DNA of 64,000 nucleotides from an uncultured Candidatus Saccharibacteria bacterium (lineage in GTDB: Bacteria; Patescibacteriota; Saccharimonadia; Saccharimonadales; CAZWFS01): NCBI GenBank assembly GCA_964633325.1, contig CAZWFS010000004.1, positions 19,423 through 83,422 of the forward strand, in the 5' to 3' direction. The position numbers were made by a program, and so were the translations under genes. The notes beneath the pieces are model-generated. The model did not search any database. It was not told where the DNA came from and saw only the letters and a list, made by a program, of their open reading frames with translations. Below are positions 8,895-58,270 of the stretch, one piece after another; positions within the stretch are counted from its first letter, which is position 1; each line of letters begins with the position of its first letter.

Positions 8895-9040
8895 TGGTGA
8901 CCTCACGGAGAATCCGTCGTCGCTTATGGCTCCTTTGGGATATTCTGCGGTCTTTCTCGGAGCGAGCTCCTGTGAGAGCCCTTGATTATCGAACTCCGAT
9001 TGCCACCGTCTTGCGGTTACGGCAATCGAAATCCGGTCCT
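8895..9040 (-). pseudogene. tRNA-Glu-derived partial copy (variable loop, T arm, 3' acceptor strand, CCA) split by a 73-nt insert; the 5' half is replaced by an unrelated GC-rich hairpin
   Basis: 8895-8914 plus 8991-9005 are identical to 9086-9120 of the intact tRNA-Glu. The insert 8915-8987 is flanked by an ATC direct repeat (8912-8914, 8988-8990). Upstream on the tRNA strand lies hairpin GATTGCC...GGCAATC (8998-9027). Confidence 0.6.
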
Positions 9041-9048
9041 CATGAGCA

Positions 9049-9085
9049 GTGAAAAAGAACCATCGCCAAGATGATTCTTTTTCAC
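9049..9085 (-). terminator. hairpin abutting the 3' end of tRNA-Glu (possible terminator or processing signal)
   Basis: GTGAAAAAGAA (9049-9059) pairs with TTCTTTTTCAC (9075-9085). The U-rich 3' arm reads on the tRNA strand immediately after CCA. Confidence 0.4.
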
Positions 9086-9160
9086 TGGTGACCTCACGGA
9101 GAATCGAACTCCGATTGCCAGGATGAAAACCTGGTGTCCTAACCGTTAGACGATGAGGCC
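9086..9160 (-). tRNA. tRNA-Glu(UUC), CCA encoded
   Basis: Manual cloverleaf: GGCCTCA/TGAGGTC acceptor, anticodon arm CCAGG-TTTTCAT-CCTGG, T arm CGGAG-TTCGATT-CTCCG. 75 nt. Confidence 0.9.
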
Positions 9161-30906: not shown

Positions 30907-31020
30907 GAGTCAATAATAGCAGCGTTTTGTTATAAAAGGCATGGTAATGCGTCTCTTGCTTACTAAATTAAGATTTCCTTGGAGGGCCATCTGTCACGCA
31001 ACTGCAACCGAAATTGTGAA

Positions 31021-31560
31021 TTACCATGGACGATTTATTGTTTCGGTTCCATTTACTATTTCTTGACTCCCATAGACAAAAGCATGCTTATTCCAGAATT
31101 CTACACTTCTATCCGTGGCATTCGGGGAATTAGGGAAAGGCTCATCATCGTCCCCAAACGTGCCAATCCATGCACTTGTAAGTACATAGGACGTGTCGGG
31201 TTGTGGTATTAACTGTAGCGCAACATATGGGCAGGGGTCGCCCATGCGAGTTTTTGTAAATGGCACCAATCCATCATCACCCCGATTTTTACGTATCCCG
31301 TAAACAATTTCGTCTGTTTCATCAACGTCAACTACATCACAAGTGCCGACAATTCTACCCATATCTACATATGTGGCAACTTCTTTACCATCTAAGTCCA
31401 TACTGTTAATGGCTTCGGCAACCAAATCCCTTAGTTGCGGTGTATCTTCAATATGCGTTGCGGCATGTGAATGAACCGGGTCATACGTTACTTTAATGCC
31501 GTTTTTAGATTGACCAATAAGTTCTTGCTGTAAATTTTCAGCACTTTCTTTAACATCCAT
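31021..31560 (-). CDS. hypothetical protein
   Basis: The ORF track starts at TTG 31566; the first ATG is at 31560 (MDVKESAENL). Acidic, with no recognisable domain. Confidence 0.5.
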   Translation of the reverse strand: MDVKESAENLQQELIGQSKNGIKVTYDPVHSHAATHIEDTPQLRDLVAEAINSMDLDGKEVATYVDMGRIVGTCDVVDVDETDEIVYGIRKNRGDDGLVPFTKTRMGDPCPYVALQLIPQPDTSYVLTSAWIGTFGDDDEPFPNSPNATDRSVEFWNKHAFVYGSQEIVNGTETINRPW

Positions 31561-31632
31561 GAGCAAATTATAACAAAAACAACCTCATTATAACTAAGTC
31601 GCAAGATATAAAAGTATATTTTATAACGGAAG

Positions 31633-31709
31633 TGGAGGGCCCACTGGGACTCGAACCCAGGACACCCTGCTTAAGAGGCAGGTGCTCTAACCAGCTGAGC
31701 TATAGGCCC
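31633..31709 (-). tRNA. tRNA-Lys(CUU), CCA encoded
   Basis: Manual cloverleaf: GGGCCTA/TGGGCCC acceptor, anticodon arm CCTGC-CTCTTAA-GCAGG, T arm CTGGG-TTCGAGT-CCCAG. 77 nt. Confidence 0.9.
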
Positions 31710-31733
31710 TTGTTACTAATTGTAATTGATGAT

Positions 31734-31910
31734 GGGGTTTGAGCCCAGGGATAAACCCTCGACCCACCGGTAATTTTCTGTAAAAAATTCCGTCGGGCCC
31801 GCCTCATCTCGGTCGCGTTCGCGAGCCAGGCTTCCGGCCTTGCGAACTGCCACCGGCAGTTCTCACCCTACTTAAGAGGCAGGTGCTCTAACCAGCTGAG
31901 CTACTGGCCC
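31734..31910 (-). pseudogene. chimeric tRNA-Lys(CUU)-derived copy with a ~99-nt GC-rich insert after the anticodon arm and a degenerate T arm and acceptor
   Basis: 31866-31910 gives an intact-looking acceptor 5' strand, D arm and anticodon arm (GGGCCAG..CCTGC-CTCTTAA-GTAGG). The insert is bounded by CACC repeats (31765-31768, 31864-31867). The remnant TGGGT-CGAG...TCCC-TGGGCTC resembles the T arm and 3' acceptor, but there is no proper 3' acceptor or CCA. Confidence 0.6.
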
Positions 31911-46749: not shown

Positions 46750-46826
46750 GCCCCGGTAGCTCAGCGGATTAGAGCAAGACGGTTCTAACGTCAAGGTCGG
46801 GGGTTCGAATCCCTCCCGGGGTACCA
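46750..46826 (+). tRNA. tRNA-Arg(UCU), CCA encoded
   Basis: Manual cloverleaf: GCCCCGG/CCGGGGT acceptor, anticodon loop GTTCTAA, T arm CGGGG-GTTCGAATC-CCCTC region. 77 nt. Confidence 0.85.
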
Positions 46827-46864
46827 AAGAAAAGTCCTCGCCTTGTGTGGGGTCTTTTCTTTGG
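46824..46864 (+). terminator. hairpin overlapping the CCA end of tRNA-Arg(UCU)
   Basis: CCAAAGAAAAG (46824-46834) pairs with CTTTTCTTTGG (46854-46864). It has the same A-rich/U-rich arm architecture as the hairpin after tRNA-Glu. Confidence 0.4.
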
Positions 46865-47047
46865 TAATTCGCGAAGCGGATTGAACTCACGACGGGGGTG
46901 CGGTGGAGCGAGGACACGCGCAGAAGCTTGCTTCGAGCATGCCGCAGCGGAAAAGGACAAAGTCCGCTATCCACTCCCAGGTTACCTTTTTATTTATGTT
47001 TAAAAATTAATCACTGGGGAGACATTAGTTCTGTTAATATTGCAGGG

Positions 47048-52237: not shown

Positions 52238-52314
52238 TGGTCGGGGATGCGGGATTTGAACCCACGACCTCCGCGTCCCGAACGCGGCGCGCTACCAAGC
52301 TGCGCTAATCCCCG
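52238..52314 (-). tRNA. tRNA-Pro(CGG), CCA encoded
   Basis: Manual cloverleaf: CGGGGAT/ATCCCCG acceptor, anticodon arm CCGCG-TTCGGGA-CGCGG, T arm GTGGG-TTCAAAT-CCCGC. 77 nt. Confidence 0.9.
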
Positions 52315-55847: not shown

Positions 55848-56120
55848 TTAGTATGGGGGATTGTTACCACGATCATTACTAGAATGCCAGTAAGCTAAGG
55901 GCGCGCCTATCATCCATAACGTTCGAGCGACACCATCAAATACTACTCGTCCTATATGCCTCCACACCGGTGTTTTTTGCTCTACGCCCTCAGGATAACC
56001 ACAAGCAACTTCTTCTAGATAATCTTCTACCTCCTGGATAAGGGTTTCGCCTTTTTTTGATAACGAACCGCAATTAAGAAATTCTGCTAAATAATATTTT
56101 CCGTTATCGTGAGTGTCCAT
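55848..56120 (-). CDS. hypothetical protein
   Basis: 90-aa ORF with no recognisable domain. Confidence 0.4.
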   Translation of the reverse strand: MDTHDNGKYYLAEFLNCGSLSKKGETLIQEVEDYLEEVACGYPEGVEQKTPVWRHIGRVVFDGVARTLWMIGAPLAYWHSSNDRGNNPPY

Positions 56121-56175
56121 ATTAATTACATAATAATACTAAGCAGACTAGAAGCAAGCATAAACAATAAATCAA

Positions 56176-56252
56176 TGGTCGGGGTGAGAGGACTCGAACC
56201 TCCGACCTCCGCGTCCCAAACGCGGCGCGCTAGCCAACTGCGCCACACCCCG
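56176..56252 (-). tRNA. tRNA-Pro(UGG), CCA encoded
   Basis: Manual cloverleaf: CGGGGTG/CACCCCG acceptor, anticodon arm CCGCG-TTTGGGA-CGCGG, T arm GGAGG-TTCGAGT-CCTCT. 77 nt. Confidence 0.9.
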
Positions 56253-56280
56253 ATATATATGTAAAATCATTGTAAAGGTT

Positions 56281-56441
56281 CGAGGATTATTTATCGAGGA
56301 CTCGGCCACCTTCGGCTCCGGAACTTCGCGATTGACAACCAGTTGTTGTCGGAAGGTTCCCTTGCGAAGTGCCACCGGCACTTCTCACCTCCGACCTCCG
56401 CGTCCCAAACGCGGGCGTTTGTCCTACTGCGCCACACCCCG
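56281..56441 (-). pseudogene. chimeric tRNA-Pro(UGG)-derived copy with a ~79-nt GC-rich insert in the T arm and no 3' acceptor strand
   Basis: 56388-56441 matches the intact gene from the acceptor 5' strand to the 5' T-stem strand GGAGG. The insert is bounded by CACC repeats (56307-56310, 56386-56389). A remnant CGAGTCCTCG lies at 56295-56304. A 30-nt block (56360-56389) is shared with the Lys chimera. Confidence 0.6.
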
Positions 56442-56539
56442 TAAATTCAACCAAGTGATAGAGGGATTATATAAAATTAACGGCTTATAAACCAGGACGA
56501 AATGTCGCTCACCGGTATTAAATATGATATAATTAGCTC

Positions 56540-56698
56540 ATGAAGTATGCCTCCATTTTCTTTACGATCCTGCTAATTTGGATCGCTGTTATTCTAATGG
56601 CCTTGACCCGTCCTGGGCCTAGCGAGATGTTTCAGCTTTATTTGGCTGTCATCGTCTGCACAATGATTTTGTTTTTGATCGGTTTTGCGAGAAAATAG
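56540..56698 (+). CDS. 52-aa two-TM small membrane protein (paralog of 58285-58473)
   Basis: Not in the ORF track (<60 aa). My own translation: MKYASIFFTILLIWIAVILMALTRPGPSEMFQLYLAVIVCTMILFLIGFARK. It aligns with the 62-aa protein through IW..LMAL...PG...IGF..K. Confidence 0.5.
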   Translation: MKYASIFFTILLIWIAVILMALTRPGPSEMFQLYLAVIVCTMILFLIGFARK

Positions 56699-56719
56699 AT
56701 ACAAAGGGAAAACTTTCTA

Positions 56720-58270
56720 ATGCGTGAATCGGTCGCCGCAATTAAACGACACCGGACTACCCGGCTAGCTAAGCTTGTCGGTAAATCATATTATTTACAC
56801 AAGCGTGGCCGTGACGTGGAAATGTCCAACCTTGTCTGCGGCGAATTCGTCAAGTTTGGCGGCGTTTATATAAAATTCTTGCAGGGCGTGCTGTTGCAAA
56901 GCGAGCTTATGCGTCGCTGGACCAATCCGGATCGGCTGAAAATTTTCGAAAACCTGGACCACGAACTACTAAACCTTGAAGCTATACTGGACAAGGAGCT
57001 ACCGGGAGACAAACGCTCGCAGATCGCCTTGGTACAGCCCCAGCCATTCGCAGCCGGAAGTTTCGGCCAGGTATATTATGGCCAACATGCCAACGGCAAG
57101 CCGATCATTATCAAGGTTTTAAGACCAATGATACGAGAACTGCTCAGATACGATTTGAAGCTACTTGCCGCCTTCAGCAAGAATTTTTTCCTAAAACTGC
57201 ATAAGAATATGGATTACCATATAGAGACCGCGATAGATGATTTCCGTTTAGCTACCCTTAGGGAGACCGACTACATAGAAGAAGCCAAGTTTGGTGCTGA
57301 ATTATACGAGATATATAAGGGCAATCCGCATTTGATAATTCCCGAAACATTCAGGGATTTGTGTACGCCCCACATCATTGTCCAGGAGTATATACCCGGC
57401 CTTAGCGTAGCCCAGCTCATTAAGCTTAAGCAGCAGGGAGTGGATCCCCAGCAATATGTCCAGGAACAACTTGGCTCGGATCTGAAAAAACAGCTGGCAG
57501 ATTTAGGCTACGAATTCATGATCAGCATATTCAACCTAACGCGCATCCAAGGAGATCCGCATCCTGGAAACGTGCGTTTAATGACAGGGAACCGAGTGGG
57601 ACTAATAGATTTTGGCATTCAGGCACGCACACCAAAAAACAAGGCAGCTTTCTTTGGCATGATTGAGGAATGGGACCGTCTATATTCCGGAACTCAGAGC
57701 ATTGCCAATATGTTCGAGCAATTCCTGCGGTTTTTTGTGAGCGACCTCTATAAGGCCTTGAAGAAACTAAGCAGCATGCAGCAACGCGAAGAAGGCGCCG
57801 AGAAATCTGATTTTACACGGGATGTCGGCCGTATCGCCCAAGAAACTTTTTCCAGTGTCATTGGTACCGACGATATTACGCCTTTGATAGAAAACGGCCG
57901 CATAATGCAGATAATCAGCCAGATCGTCAATAAAAAGAACCGCTTCGGCTTGGTCATGAAGATAGAGGCTTCAGAAATCTTGCGGGCAGCCCAGACCTAT
58001 ATGAACCTGGTCGAGAGCTTAGGTGTGCGCAGCGAAGTATTGCCGCAAGTATTCAAGCGGGTTGTAGCAAATGTGCATAGCGAGCATCAGGAGATGTTGC
58101 ATCAGAACGACGAACTCACTAGCATCAGCGACGCCCTAGAAACAGTCAGCAACTGGTTAGAGCGAGTAGCCGAGCGCGATCCGATGCTATTTAGCCAGTT
58201 GATGAGACGCATAAAGCTAGGCAAGCACCAAACCGTAGACATAGTTAAAGAAGTTCCAGATGTCTCATAA
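56720..58270 (+). CDS. ABC1/UbiB-family atypical protein kinase
   Basis: 516 aa with AAGSFGQVYYG, IIKVLRP, GDPHPGNV and IDFG motifs. Confidence 0.85.
   Translation: MRESVAAIKRHRTTRLAKLVGKSYYLHKRGRDVEMSNLVCGEFVKFGGVYIKFLQGVLLQSELMRRWTNPDRLKIFENLDHELLNLEAILDKELPGDKRSQIALVQPQPFAAGSFGQVYYGQHANGKPIIIKVLRPMIRELLRYDLKLLAAFSKNFFLKLHKNMDYHIETAIDDFRLATLRETDYIEEAKFGAELYEIYKGNPHLIIPETFRDLCTPHIIVQEYIPGLSVAQLIKLKQQGVDPQQYVQEQLGSDLKKQLADLGYEFMISIFNLTRIQGDPHPGNVRLMTGNRVGLIDFGIQARTPKNKAAFFGMIEEWDRLYSGTQSIANMFEQFLRFFVSDLYKALKKLSSMQQREEGAEKSDFTRDVGRIAQETFSSVIGTDDITPLIENGRIMQIISQIVNKKNRFGLVMKIEASEILRAAQTYMNLVESLGVRSEVLPQVFKRVVANVHSEHQEMLHQNDELTSISDALETVSNWLERVAERDPMLFSQLMRRIKLGKHQTVDIVKEVPDVS

Follow-up and report, generated by a model that had tools for sequence, protein, structure and literature searches.

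A folded three-hairpin module inside split tRNA genes of Saccharibacteria and its possible place at mobile junctions

The window analysed in this work, a stretch of 64,000 nucleotides (nt) from an uncultured Candidatus Saccharibacteria bacterium (contig CAZWFS010000004.1 of assembly GCA_964633325.1), contains on its minus strand an intact gene for tRNA-Pro(UGG) that is preceded by a displaced 5' part of the same gene running straight into an insert of three hairpins. Genomes of Saccharibacteria and their relatives are tiny and carry their tRNA genes in single copy, and few mobile elements have been recognised in them. What kind of sequence would split a tRNA gene in such a genome and leave a working copy right next to it? 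An earlier note on this DNA had considered a tiny tRNA-targeting insertion element, an unusual intervening sequence and a tRNA-mimic non-coding RNA transcribed together with the real tRNA. We describe here that the insert belongs to a large and apparently undescribed family of small, apparently mobile modules found almost only in Saccharibacteria, and we weigh a model, which we believe and doubt in about equal measure, in which its hairpins form the cis-acting, single-strand-folded part of a recombination site at a mobile junction.

Anatomy of the split tRNA genes and fold of the insert

ARAGORN and the Rfam tRNA model agree with the earlier note that the gene for tRNA-Pro(UGG) is intact (Table 1). 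Its first base pair, C1-G72, is of the type found in bacterial tRNA-Pro, and it is best read as a rebuilt, functional gene. The displaced part upstream keeps a TATAAT ahead of it and, as had been noticed before, repeats the gene with the same UGG anticodon up to the T-stem strand GGAGG; identity to the real gene is 94% at aligned positions, with a diverged D-loop and one change that disrupts a stem. The GC-rich insert that interrupts this half-tRNA is real, though it measures 83 nt by our boundaries and not the roughly 79 nt first given. Direct reading of the minus strand also bears out the T-loop and T-stem remnant described behind it, which is followed by an AT-rich spacer; the chimera has neither an acceptor 3' strand nor a CCA. 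In this spacer, the -10 box of a promoter-like site ends 17 nt ahead of the real tRNA-Pro, and a scan of the spacer detected no terminator between chimera and tRNA.

Because an independent assembly (Logan contig L149) is identical over 56187-56720, the chimera is not an assembly artefact. The same contig ends within the T-arm of tRNA-Pro (window 56176-56190), where repeated T-arm and module sequence may break short-read assemblies. Downstream of tRNA-Pro(UGG), we found no repeat of its 3' end except the one belonging to tRNA-Pro(CGG) at 52238.

Table 1. Features of the two split tRNA loci, in positions of the window
Feature	Position	Strand	Basis	Remarks
Intact tRNA-Pro(UGG)	56176-56252	-	ARAGORN; Rfam tRNA model, 66.7 bits	C1-G72, encoded CCA
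Displaced tRNA-Pro(UGG), 5' two-thirds	56388-56441	-	Direct reading	Acceptor 5' strand, D arm, anticodon arm, variable loop, T-stem 5' strand GGAGG
Three-hairpin module INS, variant v1	56305-56387	-	Covariance model R1, 84.4 bits, E 2.7e-18	83 nt, after T54
P1 of Pro module	56363-56387	-		UG/CA plus GAAGUGCC-GGU-GGCACUUC
P2 of Pro module	56320-56360	-		
P3 of Pro module	56305-56317	-		Damaged, 3-nt deletion
Remnant of T-loop 3' part and T-stem 3' strand, CGAGTCCTCG	56295-56304	-	Direct reading	Closes module in T-stem
Inverted (antisense) T-arm scrap, CCTCGAACCT	56276-56285	-		
Promoter-like site TCGATA-17-TACAAT in spacer	56269-56297	-	Consensus scan	Predicted only
Displaced tRNA-Lys(CUU), 5' part	31866-31910	-		Through anticodon arm into variable loop
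Module, variant v2	31761-31865	-	R1 match, 45.3 bits	In variable loop, not T-loop
Degenerate T-arm of Lys chimera, CCCTGGGCTCAAACCCCA	31733-31750	-		
TACAAT in spacer between Lys degenerate T-arm and real gene	31719-31724			
Intact tRNA-Lys(CUU)	31633-31709	-	ARAGORN, Rfam	

The second locus lies at tRNA-Lys(CUU). As the note had seen, the 30-nt block at 56360-56389 recurs at 31838-31867, and the only two differences are both partners of one pair in hairpin P1; the hairpin pattern matches three times, compared with 0.01 matches expected from shuffles. Variant v2 of the Lys locus has P1 and the base of P3 in common with v1 of the Pro locus, including a conserved G.U pair, and differs in P2 and in an extended P3, its helices having been compared across copies by eye only, in one alignment. 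The Lys module folds with z = -3.9. Folded alone, the Pro module is unremarkable (z = -0.96), and this copy is a somewhat decayed member of the family. The Lys chimera (31822-31910, minus strand) is scored as a tRNA by the Rfam model, with 34.6 bits and over the gathering score; in this match, CTGGCTC from within the insert is the pairing partner of the 5' acceptor strand. Chimeras of this kind can confuse tRNA annotation by being mis-called as tRNA genes.

Beyond the window, the block recurs in Saccharibacteria genomes and metagenomes. An exact scan in which the variable pair was left degenerate found 28 loci in species-representative genomes, 25 of them labelled Saccharibacteria or Saccharimonadia and three with other Patescibacteria labels, and a looser pattern found at least 120 metagenome loci, which may be redundant. 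The resulting family comprises more than 150 copies of about 83-120 nt without an open reading frame (ORF). Neither the block nor the recombinase at one of the related loci described below (L021) had a counterpart in viral contigs, and a phage origin was rejected on these grounds. Searches of Rfam 15, including permissive ones (E up to 10), returned tRNA only, the next best hit being DUF3800-VI at 17.2 bits against a cut-off of 35, so that no Rfam family explains the insert. We also found no description of the module in the literature searched, whose incomplete coverage makes this weak evidence of novelty.

Across the family, the fold is strongly conserved. An alignment of 22 copies (MAFFT/RNAalifold) gives three hairpins with the same helices and double changes in 21 of 35 pairs, P1 consisting of UG/CA and an 8-bp stem with an NGU loop, P2 of a long stem and P3 of 7 bp. 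The covariance model built on this alignment recovered 110 copies at E <= 1e-10, in which 97% of cells are standard pairs and 32 of the 35 pairs show double changes; none of 500 shuffles matched what was observed, and slid controls pair in 28-43% of cells. The 110 copies were fitted to the model, and these figures consequently lean toward structure, whereas the MAFFT/RNAalifold result is independent of it. At the variable P1 pair all four Watson-Crick pairs occur (CG 45, AU 28, UA 19 and GC 15 over the 110 copies), which argues for formation of the hairpin and not for base-specific protein contacts on duplex DNA. The selection on structure that the note had read from a single compensatory change is thus strongly supported. 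G.U combinations outnumber A.C combinations by 187 to 27 and are concentrated at three positions, with one G.U present in 94 of 110 copies; this concentration places the fold on the tRNA-sense strand, either as RNA or as single-stranded DNA.

Two of the earlier proposals did not survive this comparison. The CACC direct repeats (GGTG on the tRNA strand) that were thought to bound the insert are not a target-site duplication, since the 3' GGTG lies inside the variable 3' strand of P3, where other copies have CGTGAC, GGTAGG or GGTGAG. An intron, i.e., an intervening sequence removed after transcription from a functional tRNA, would fit the T-loop and position 37/38, both known sites of archaeal introns, and in-silico removal of the insert does give a tRNA recognised by ARAGORN in three of 110 copies. 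The other 107 have no complete tRNA, however, and the window copy lacks the acceptor 3' strand and CCA, while an intact gene of the same isoacceptor is always adjacent. In addition, Rfam gave no group I signal at E up to 10, 83 nt would be too short for an intron of this kind, for which 200 nt or more is expected, and the anticodon loop is where such introns have been described in tRNAs of Patescibacteria (PMC13011429), whereas the Pro insert sits in the T-loop. We regard the intron reading as effectively refuted and give it hardly any credence.

Insertion site and two layouts around intact tRNA genes

The 5' flank of the module ends in GG in 108 of 110 copies and the 3' flank is T-loop-like in at least 81, from which the usual site is placed between T54 and C56. 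For copies found with the covariance model, the nearest tRNA shares the strand of the module in 88 cases and lies opposite to it in two, and 28 anticodon types are represented. Two layouts account for 106 of 159 pattern matches, with the rest mostly at contig ends, and in both layouts, as in the Pro and Lys loci of the window, a partial tRNA copy stands in direct orientation beside an intact gene. In Type A (48 of 159), a same-strand tRNA starts 112-365 nt downstream of the module, mostly 112-190 nt, and the order begins with the tRNA 5' part and the module. Behind the module come roughly 10 nt from T-loop and T-stem, then a small piece of T-arm in antisense, and a spacer separates this from the intact tRNA; both window loci are of this type. 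In Type B (58 of 159), a same-strand tRNA ends 29-397 nt upstream, mostly 53-96 nt. There, the intact tRNA is followed by a terminator hairpin flush with its CCA, a degenerate antisense tRNA 3' half that starts with TGG, a turn, about 12 nt in sense, the module and finally the tRNA from the 3' part of the T-loop to CCA.

The inverted pieces have statistical support in both layouts. Antisense similarity to the local tRNA (z > 3) was seen in 63% of Type B cases, compared with 2% for the sense control, and the corresponding values for Type A spacers are 46% and 6%. Identity between the antisense arms and the complement of the tRNA is about 77%, and their substitutions are those of ordinary decay with an AT bias, without wobble bias. 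The idea that they are kept to pair with the sense fragment was rejected given this substitution spectrum, from which maintenance is not demonstrable; a count of wobble asymmetry had too few alignments, and a scan for palindrome centres was noisy. Type A spacers hold a -10-like box in 20 of 35 cases, compared with 38 of 131 regions upstream of control tRNAs. The motif TTGAACC near modules was discarded as a -35 box, as its spacing is wrong by eye and it is a piece of antisense T-loop.

In Type B, the 12 nt before the module carry a recurrent variant (GTCG to GGAG) in independent genomes, and in 26 of 49 loci the real gene is matched exactly over the 19 nt that follow the module. This suggests that the upstream side would be borne by the element and that the 3' part would be the shared, recombining side. 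A crossover at the centre of the palindrome, near tRNA positions 41/42, was also tried and rejected, because it would leave no intact tRNA and is contradicted by the element-type variant in the 12 nt upstream and by a 3' part that equals the real gene.

The window itself holds two modules of Type B-like order, and within it only their two tRNAs have a terminator hairpin directly after CCA. At 8895-9050 on the minus strand, downstream of tRNA-Glu(UUC) (9086-9160), the terminator stands flush with CCA and leads into an antisense tRNA 3' half and a turn, after which the sense strand is resumed as far as the T-loop (GGAGTTCGAT); the insert of 73 nt that comes next is unrelated in sequence to the Pro and Lys insert, and behind it lies GATTCTCCGTGAGGTCACCA, which is the exact real 3' end. 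Downstream of tRNA-Arg(UCU) (46750-46826), at 46827-46989 on the plus strand, a terminator is followed by an antisense arm (TGGTAATTCGCGAAGCGGATTGAAC...), then by an insert of a third family, GAGGACACGCGCAGAAGCTTGCTTCGAGCATGCCGCAGCGGAAAAGGAC, and last by a degenerate 3' end of Arg; L026 has the same insert in its module at tRNA-Val.

The layouts bear directly on whether the module could be a functional non-coding RNA, which would use a captured tRNA promoter in Type A or a tRNA-like 3' end in Type B for expression or stability and would either regulate the element or act like a guide whose tRNA flanks specify the target. Type A is consistent with this in that the hairpins stand directly behind a tRNA 5' part that retains its upstream TATAAT, with no terminator detected between chimera and tRNA. 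The strand-specific fold with conserved G.U pairs, the shared direction of module and tRNA in 88 of 90 copies and the use of one scaffold with flanks specific to 28 tRNA types point the same way. Type B modules, however, lie behind a strong terminator, and no convincing promoter was seen in three arms read by eye without a scan (L001, L003 and L005). Folded sites in single-stranded DNA also tolerate G.T wobble, the module has few conserved unpaired nucleotides, and the antisense arms decay toward AT without wobble bias. On balance we consider an RNA function improbable, though worth keeping in mind.

Recombinase islands, gene cassettes and a proposed mobile-junction model

Some relatives of the module are accompanied by genes. 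Large serine recombinases lie beside it at six of about 150 loci (L006, L021, L124, L126, L148 and L114). In L006, the real tRNA-Gln and a module joined to a Gln 3' end are 4.2 kb apart, and between them are other genes and a large serine recombinase with the Pfam domains Resolvase, Recombinase and Zn_ribbon_recom. L021 and L027 are one contig, on which a 4.1-kb unit is repeated in tandem until its last copy abuts host sequence; besides a module and two further ORFs, the unit has a convergent recombinase gene whose reading frame crosses the module in antisense. In L006, L124 and L148, the recombinase gene runs convergently toward the 3' end of the real tRNA, and in L021 (two copies), L126 and L114 it overlaps the module, lying on the other strand. 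The statement in the earlier note that no integrase or mobile-element gene is nearby thus holds within the window, where tblastn with the recombinases of related loci gave no match, and does not hold across the family.

Elsewhere, arrays of single-gene cassettes were observed (L127 1-3800, L115 11100-12800, L100 1-1100 and L030 10500-13200), encoding a GNAT acetyltransferase, a 2'-5' RNA ligase, a ROK kinase, a racemase, a hydrolase and a cupredoxin. Each cassette is flanked by the last 9 nt of tRNA-Lys, the core GGCCCTCCA, which is preceded by the conserved cassette end TTGTTGCRATAGCRTCTACGGT and followed by the conserved end ATACGCTTATGCTTAAAACA; a module is present at some junctions, while others join cassette directly to cassette. 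In the window, the region 3' of tRNA-Lys(CUU) (30980-31632, minus strand) contains a single ORF at 31021-31566 (181 amino acids, without a Pfam match) that ends in CGGTTGCAGTTGCGTGACAGA-TGGCCCTCCA, a direct repeat of the tRNA-Lys 3' end, and the motif before this repeat is the 3'-end motif of the metagenomic tRNA-Lys cassettes in L127 and L115. To judge from these sequence features, the ORF looks like one integrated cassette. Directly 3' of tRNA-Pro(UGG), at 56120-56175 on the minus strand, the window reads TTGATTTATTGTTTATGCTTGC, which is similar to the cassette 5'-end motif CGTTTATGCTTAAA.

Several loci bear signs of mobility or repeated insertion. In L042 and L091, Type A units stand in tandem upstream of one real tRNA-Gln, and in L091, where the insertion is in the D arm, each unit retains about 12 nt of downstream target after the module. 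L012 combines a Type A chimera with copies in anticodon loop and T-loop, a real tRNA-Leu and a Type B module; its copies are nested in one another and show four different compensatory P1 sequences. The 5' parts of some chimeras differ from the neighbouring gene by compensatory stem changes, three in L023 and two in L042, which indicates that they come from a different functional allele. No target-site duplication is seen, as a target GG-NN-C becomes GG[module]C, and the module termini GGTGA...TGACC form only a 5-bp imperfect inverted repeat.

In the mobile-junction model, the Pro chimera would be the left junction of a gene-less insertion of ca. 190 bp into an earlier tRNA-Pro(UGG) gene. The usual point at which a module enters a tRNA gene would be the T-loop, between T54 and C56, with P1-P2-P3 as the leading end, and beyond the insert the mobile unit would include the T-arm remnant, the inverted T-arm scrap, the promoter-like spacer and a replacement tRNA part that is probably supplied by the element. 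In Type A, a fresh 5' two-thirds would join the old 3' third to give the working tRNA at 56176-56252, and the old 5' two-thirds, running into the hairpins, would be left behind as a dead chimera. In Type B, the unit would bring a 3' third with its terminator, and the old 3' third would survive downstream, separated from the working gene by an antisense arm and the hairpins. The joining enzyme would be a serine recombinase, to judge from adjacency at six of about 150 loci (or the joining would occur by short-homology recombination), and the hairpins may be the cis-acting part of its site that folds as a single strand. As the module ends serine-recombinase islands of about 4 kb and separates tRNA-Lys cassettes, the window copies are most likely cargo-less relatives moved in trans. 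The tiny tRNA-targeting insertion element of the earlier note finds support in a multi-copy, gene-less module at 28 tRNA types that forms arrays and nests, with the amendment that the mobile unit seems larger than the insert.

The strongest competitor is that the insert itself moves, as a non-autonomous element resembling miniature inverted-repeat transposable elements (MITEs) that targets GC-rich hairpin loops after GG and favours T-arms. Insertions into an essential tRNA would be lethal, such that only copies in dead fragments, made by other elements, would survive. In its favour is where the copies are found: within other copies (L012, L044, L091 and L051), in the anticodon loop (L012, L018 and L104), in the D arm (L016, L091 and L042), in the variable loop (window Lys locus) and in non-tRNA hairpins with complementary flanks after groEL and rplL. 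The GG flank of 108 of 110 copies, termini that resemble weak 5-bp inverted repeats and, in L018 and L016, a duplication boundary separate from the insert site also fit. Against it stand the missing target-site duplication, the lack of convincing terminal inverted repeats and the lack of an associated transposase. All eight Type B-like fragments that were met without selecting for this insert hold an insert and none is empty, which argues for coupling rather than later colonisation. The consistent geometry, in which the truncated side keeps about 12 nt of target ahead of an inverted copy, and the conserved element-type variant in the 12 nt upstream of Type B modules also speak against it. We rate a self-mobile insert as unlikely overall, though a serious contender.

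The two copies outside tRNAs (L058 4434-4520, minus strand, and L087 3710-3795, plus strand) are found immediately beyond the 3' ends of groEL and rplL, on the strand opposite to these genes. Both have in common an upstream motif of about 40 nt (CAGTCCGAG-hairpin-CCCGGCACG), their complementary flanks close the module in a stem, and Rfam found nothing at either.

Several observations count against the mobile-junction model. Copies in anticodon loop, D arm and variable loop, inside other copies and in non-tRNA hairpins fit a self-mobile insert at least as well. Among the sequences collected we found no circular or free forms, no contig with terminal overlaps, no empty-site forms and no presence/absence polymorphism, the sole other assembly recovered (L149) being identical to the window. 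Movement in trans has to be assumed for both window loci, as no recombinase or cargo lies at either. Known large serine recombinases act on double-stranded sites of ca. 40-50 bp, and they have no known need for hairpin structures. The model also leaves unexplained how one enzyme would yield both mirror layouts and why all eight unselected Type B-like modules hold some structured T-loop insert, in each case from other sequence families.

Known systems compared and what the module may mean

That integration into tRNA genes leaves partial copies, and that successive integrations push remnants outward, is already known in general. A close case is that of the tycheposons of Prochlorococcus, which integrate into tRNA genes and leave partial tRNA attachment copies, some of them with large serine recombinases (bioRxiv 10.1101/2020.12.28.424599). 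Successive integrations that displace older elements away from the tRNA, and the accumulation of degenerate remnants, are further points in common. Unlike tycheposons, the loci described here have a conserved three-hairpin junction, mostly in the T-loop, and occur in two mirror forms, one of which replaces the 5' part of the tRNA and the other its 3' part; genes are absent from the majority of copies, and an inverted copy of a tRNA part goes with them. New features are a conserved module that folds at the junction, a design that works from two sides, the inverted pieces of tRNA and the predominance of gene-less copies.

Integron attC sites and their cassette arrays share with the module a structure conserved through compensatory variation, a strand-specific fold and arrays of single-gene cassettes (L127, L115, L100 and L030). 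The module differs in having three hairpins within tRNA fragments, in a shared core that is the tRNA 3' end GGCCCTCCA and in nearby enzymes that are serine recombinases. No IntI-type tyrosine recombinase was found among the ORFs scanned, in a scan that was not exhaustive; neither a GTTRRRY core nor R or L boxes were seen in the sequences read, though no pattern search was made. A bolder reading would see here an integron-like, tRNA-anchored form of gene capture in Saccharibacteria, with the three-hairpin module and the short sense and antisense target copies as a structured, re-targetable site (folded single-stranded DNA or RNA) served by serine recombinases and not by an integron integrase. 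We think this improbable; if true, one scaffold would serve at least 28 tRNA genes and rebuild the tRNA from either side.

Other systems resemble the module in part. In the folded single-stranded attP of CTX phage, which is used by host Xer recombinases, inverted target copies could fold to mimic a double-stranded target with an unpaired centre, but the likeness does not go beyond analogy: neither a filamentous phage nor a dif site nor a link to Xer is present here, and simple strand exchange only partly reproduces the order of segments. MITEs and palindrome elements derived from IS200/IS605 are likewise small, gene-less, multi-copy and rich in hairpins, without long target duplications, but no matching transposase was seen at our loci, the terminal repeats are unconvincing, and coupling to tRNA duplication and rebuilding is not a property of MITEs. 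Introns in tRNAs (bulge-helix-bulge introns of Archaea at non-canonical positions; group I introns of Patescibacteria, PMC13011429) also lie inside the tRNA, including the T-loop and position 37/38; here, however, the host tRNA is incomplete, splicing cannot give a tRNA, and there is no group I core. Guide or bridge RNAs of transposons (the IS110 bridge RNA and the guide RNAs of TnpB or IscB) would combine an RNA scaffold with segments complementary to the target. At our loci, flanks in sense and antisense that are specific to each tRNA do surround one scaffold, although duplication derived from the target explains these too, and we noticed no IS110, TnpB or IscB gene at the loci examined, where no systematic search for them was made.

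For Saccharibacteria, the module is a sign that genes may flow and genomes may change by a path not recognised so far: gene-less and highly structured, it repeatedly splits tRNA genes and yet leaves a working copy, and it also marks the ends of recombinase islands and cassette arrays. We count it among the best-supported unannotated nucleic-acid structures, and it may offer a handle on site-specific recombination that depends on a folded strand or RNA outside integrons.

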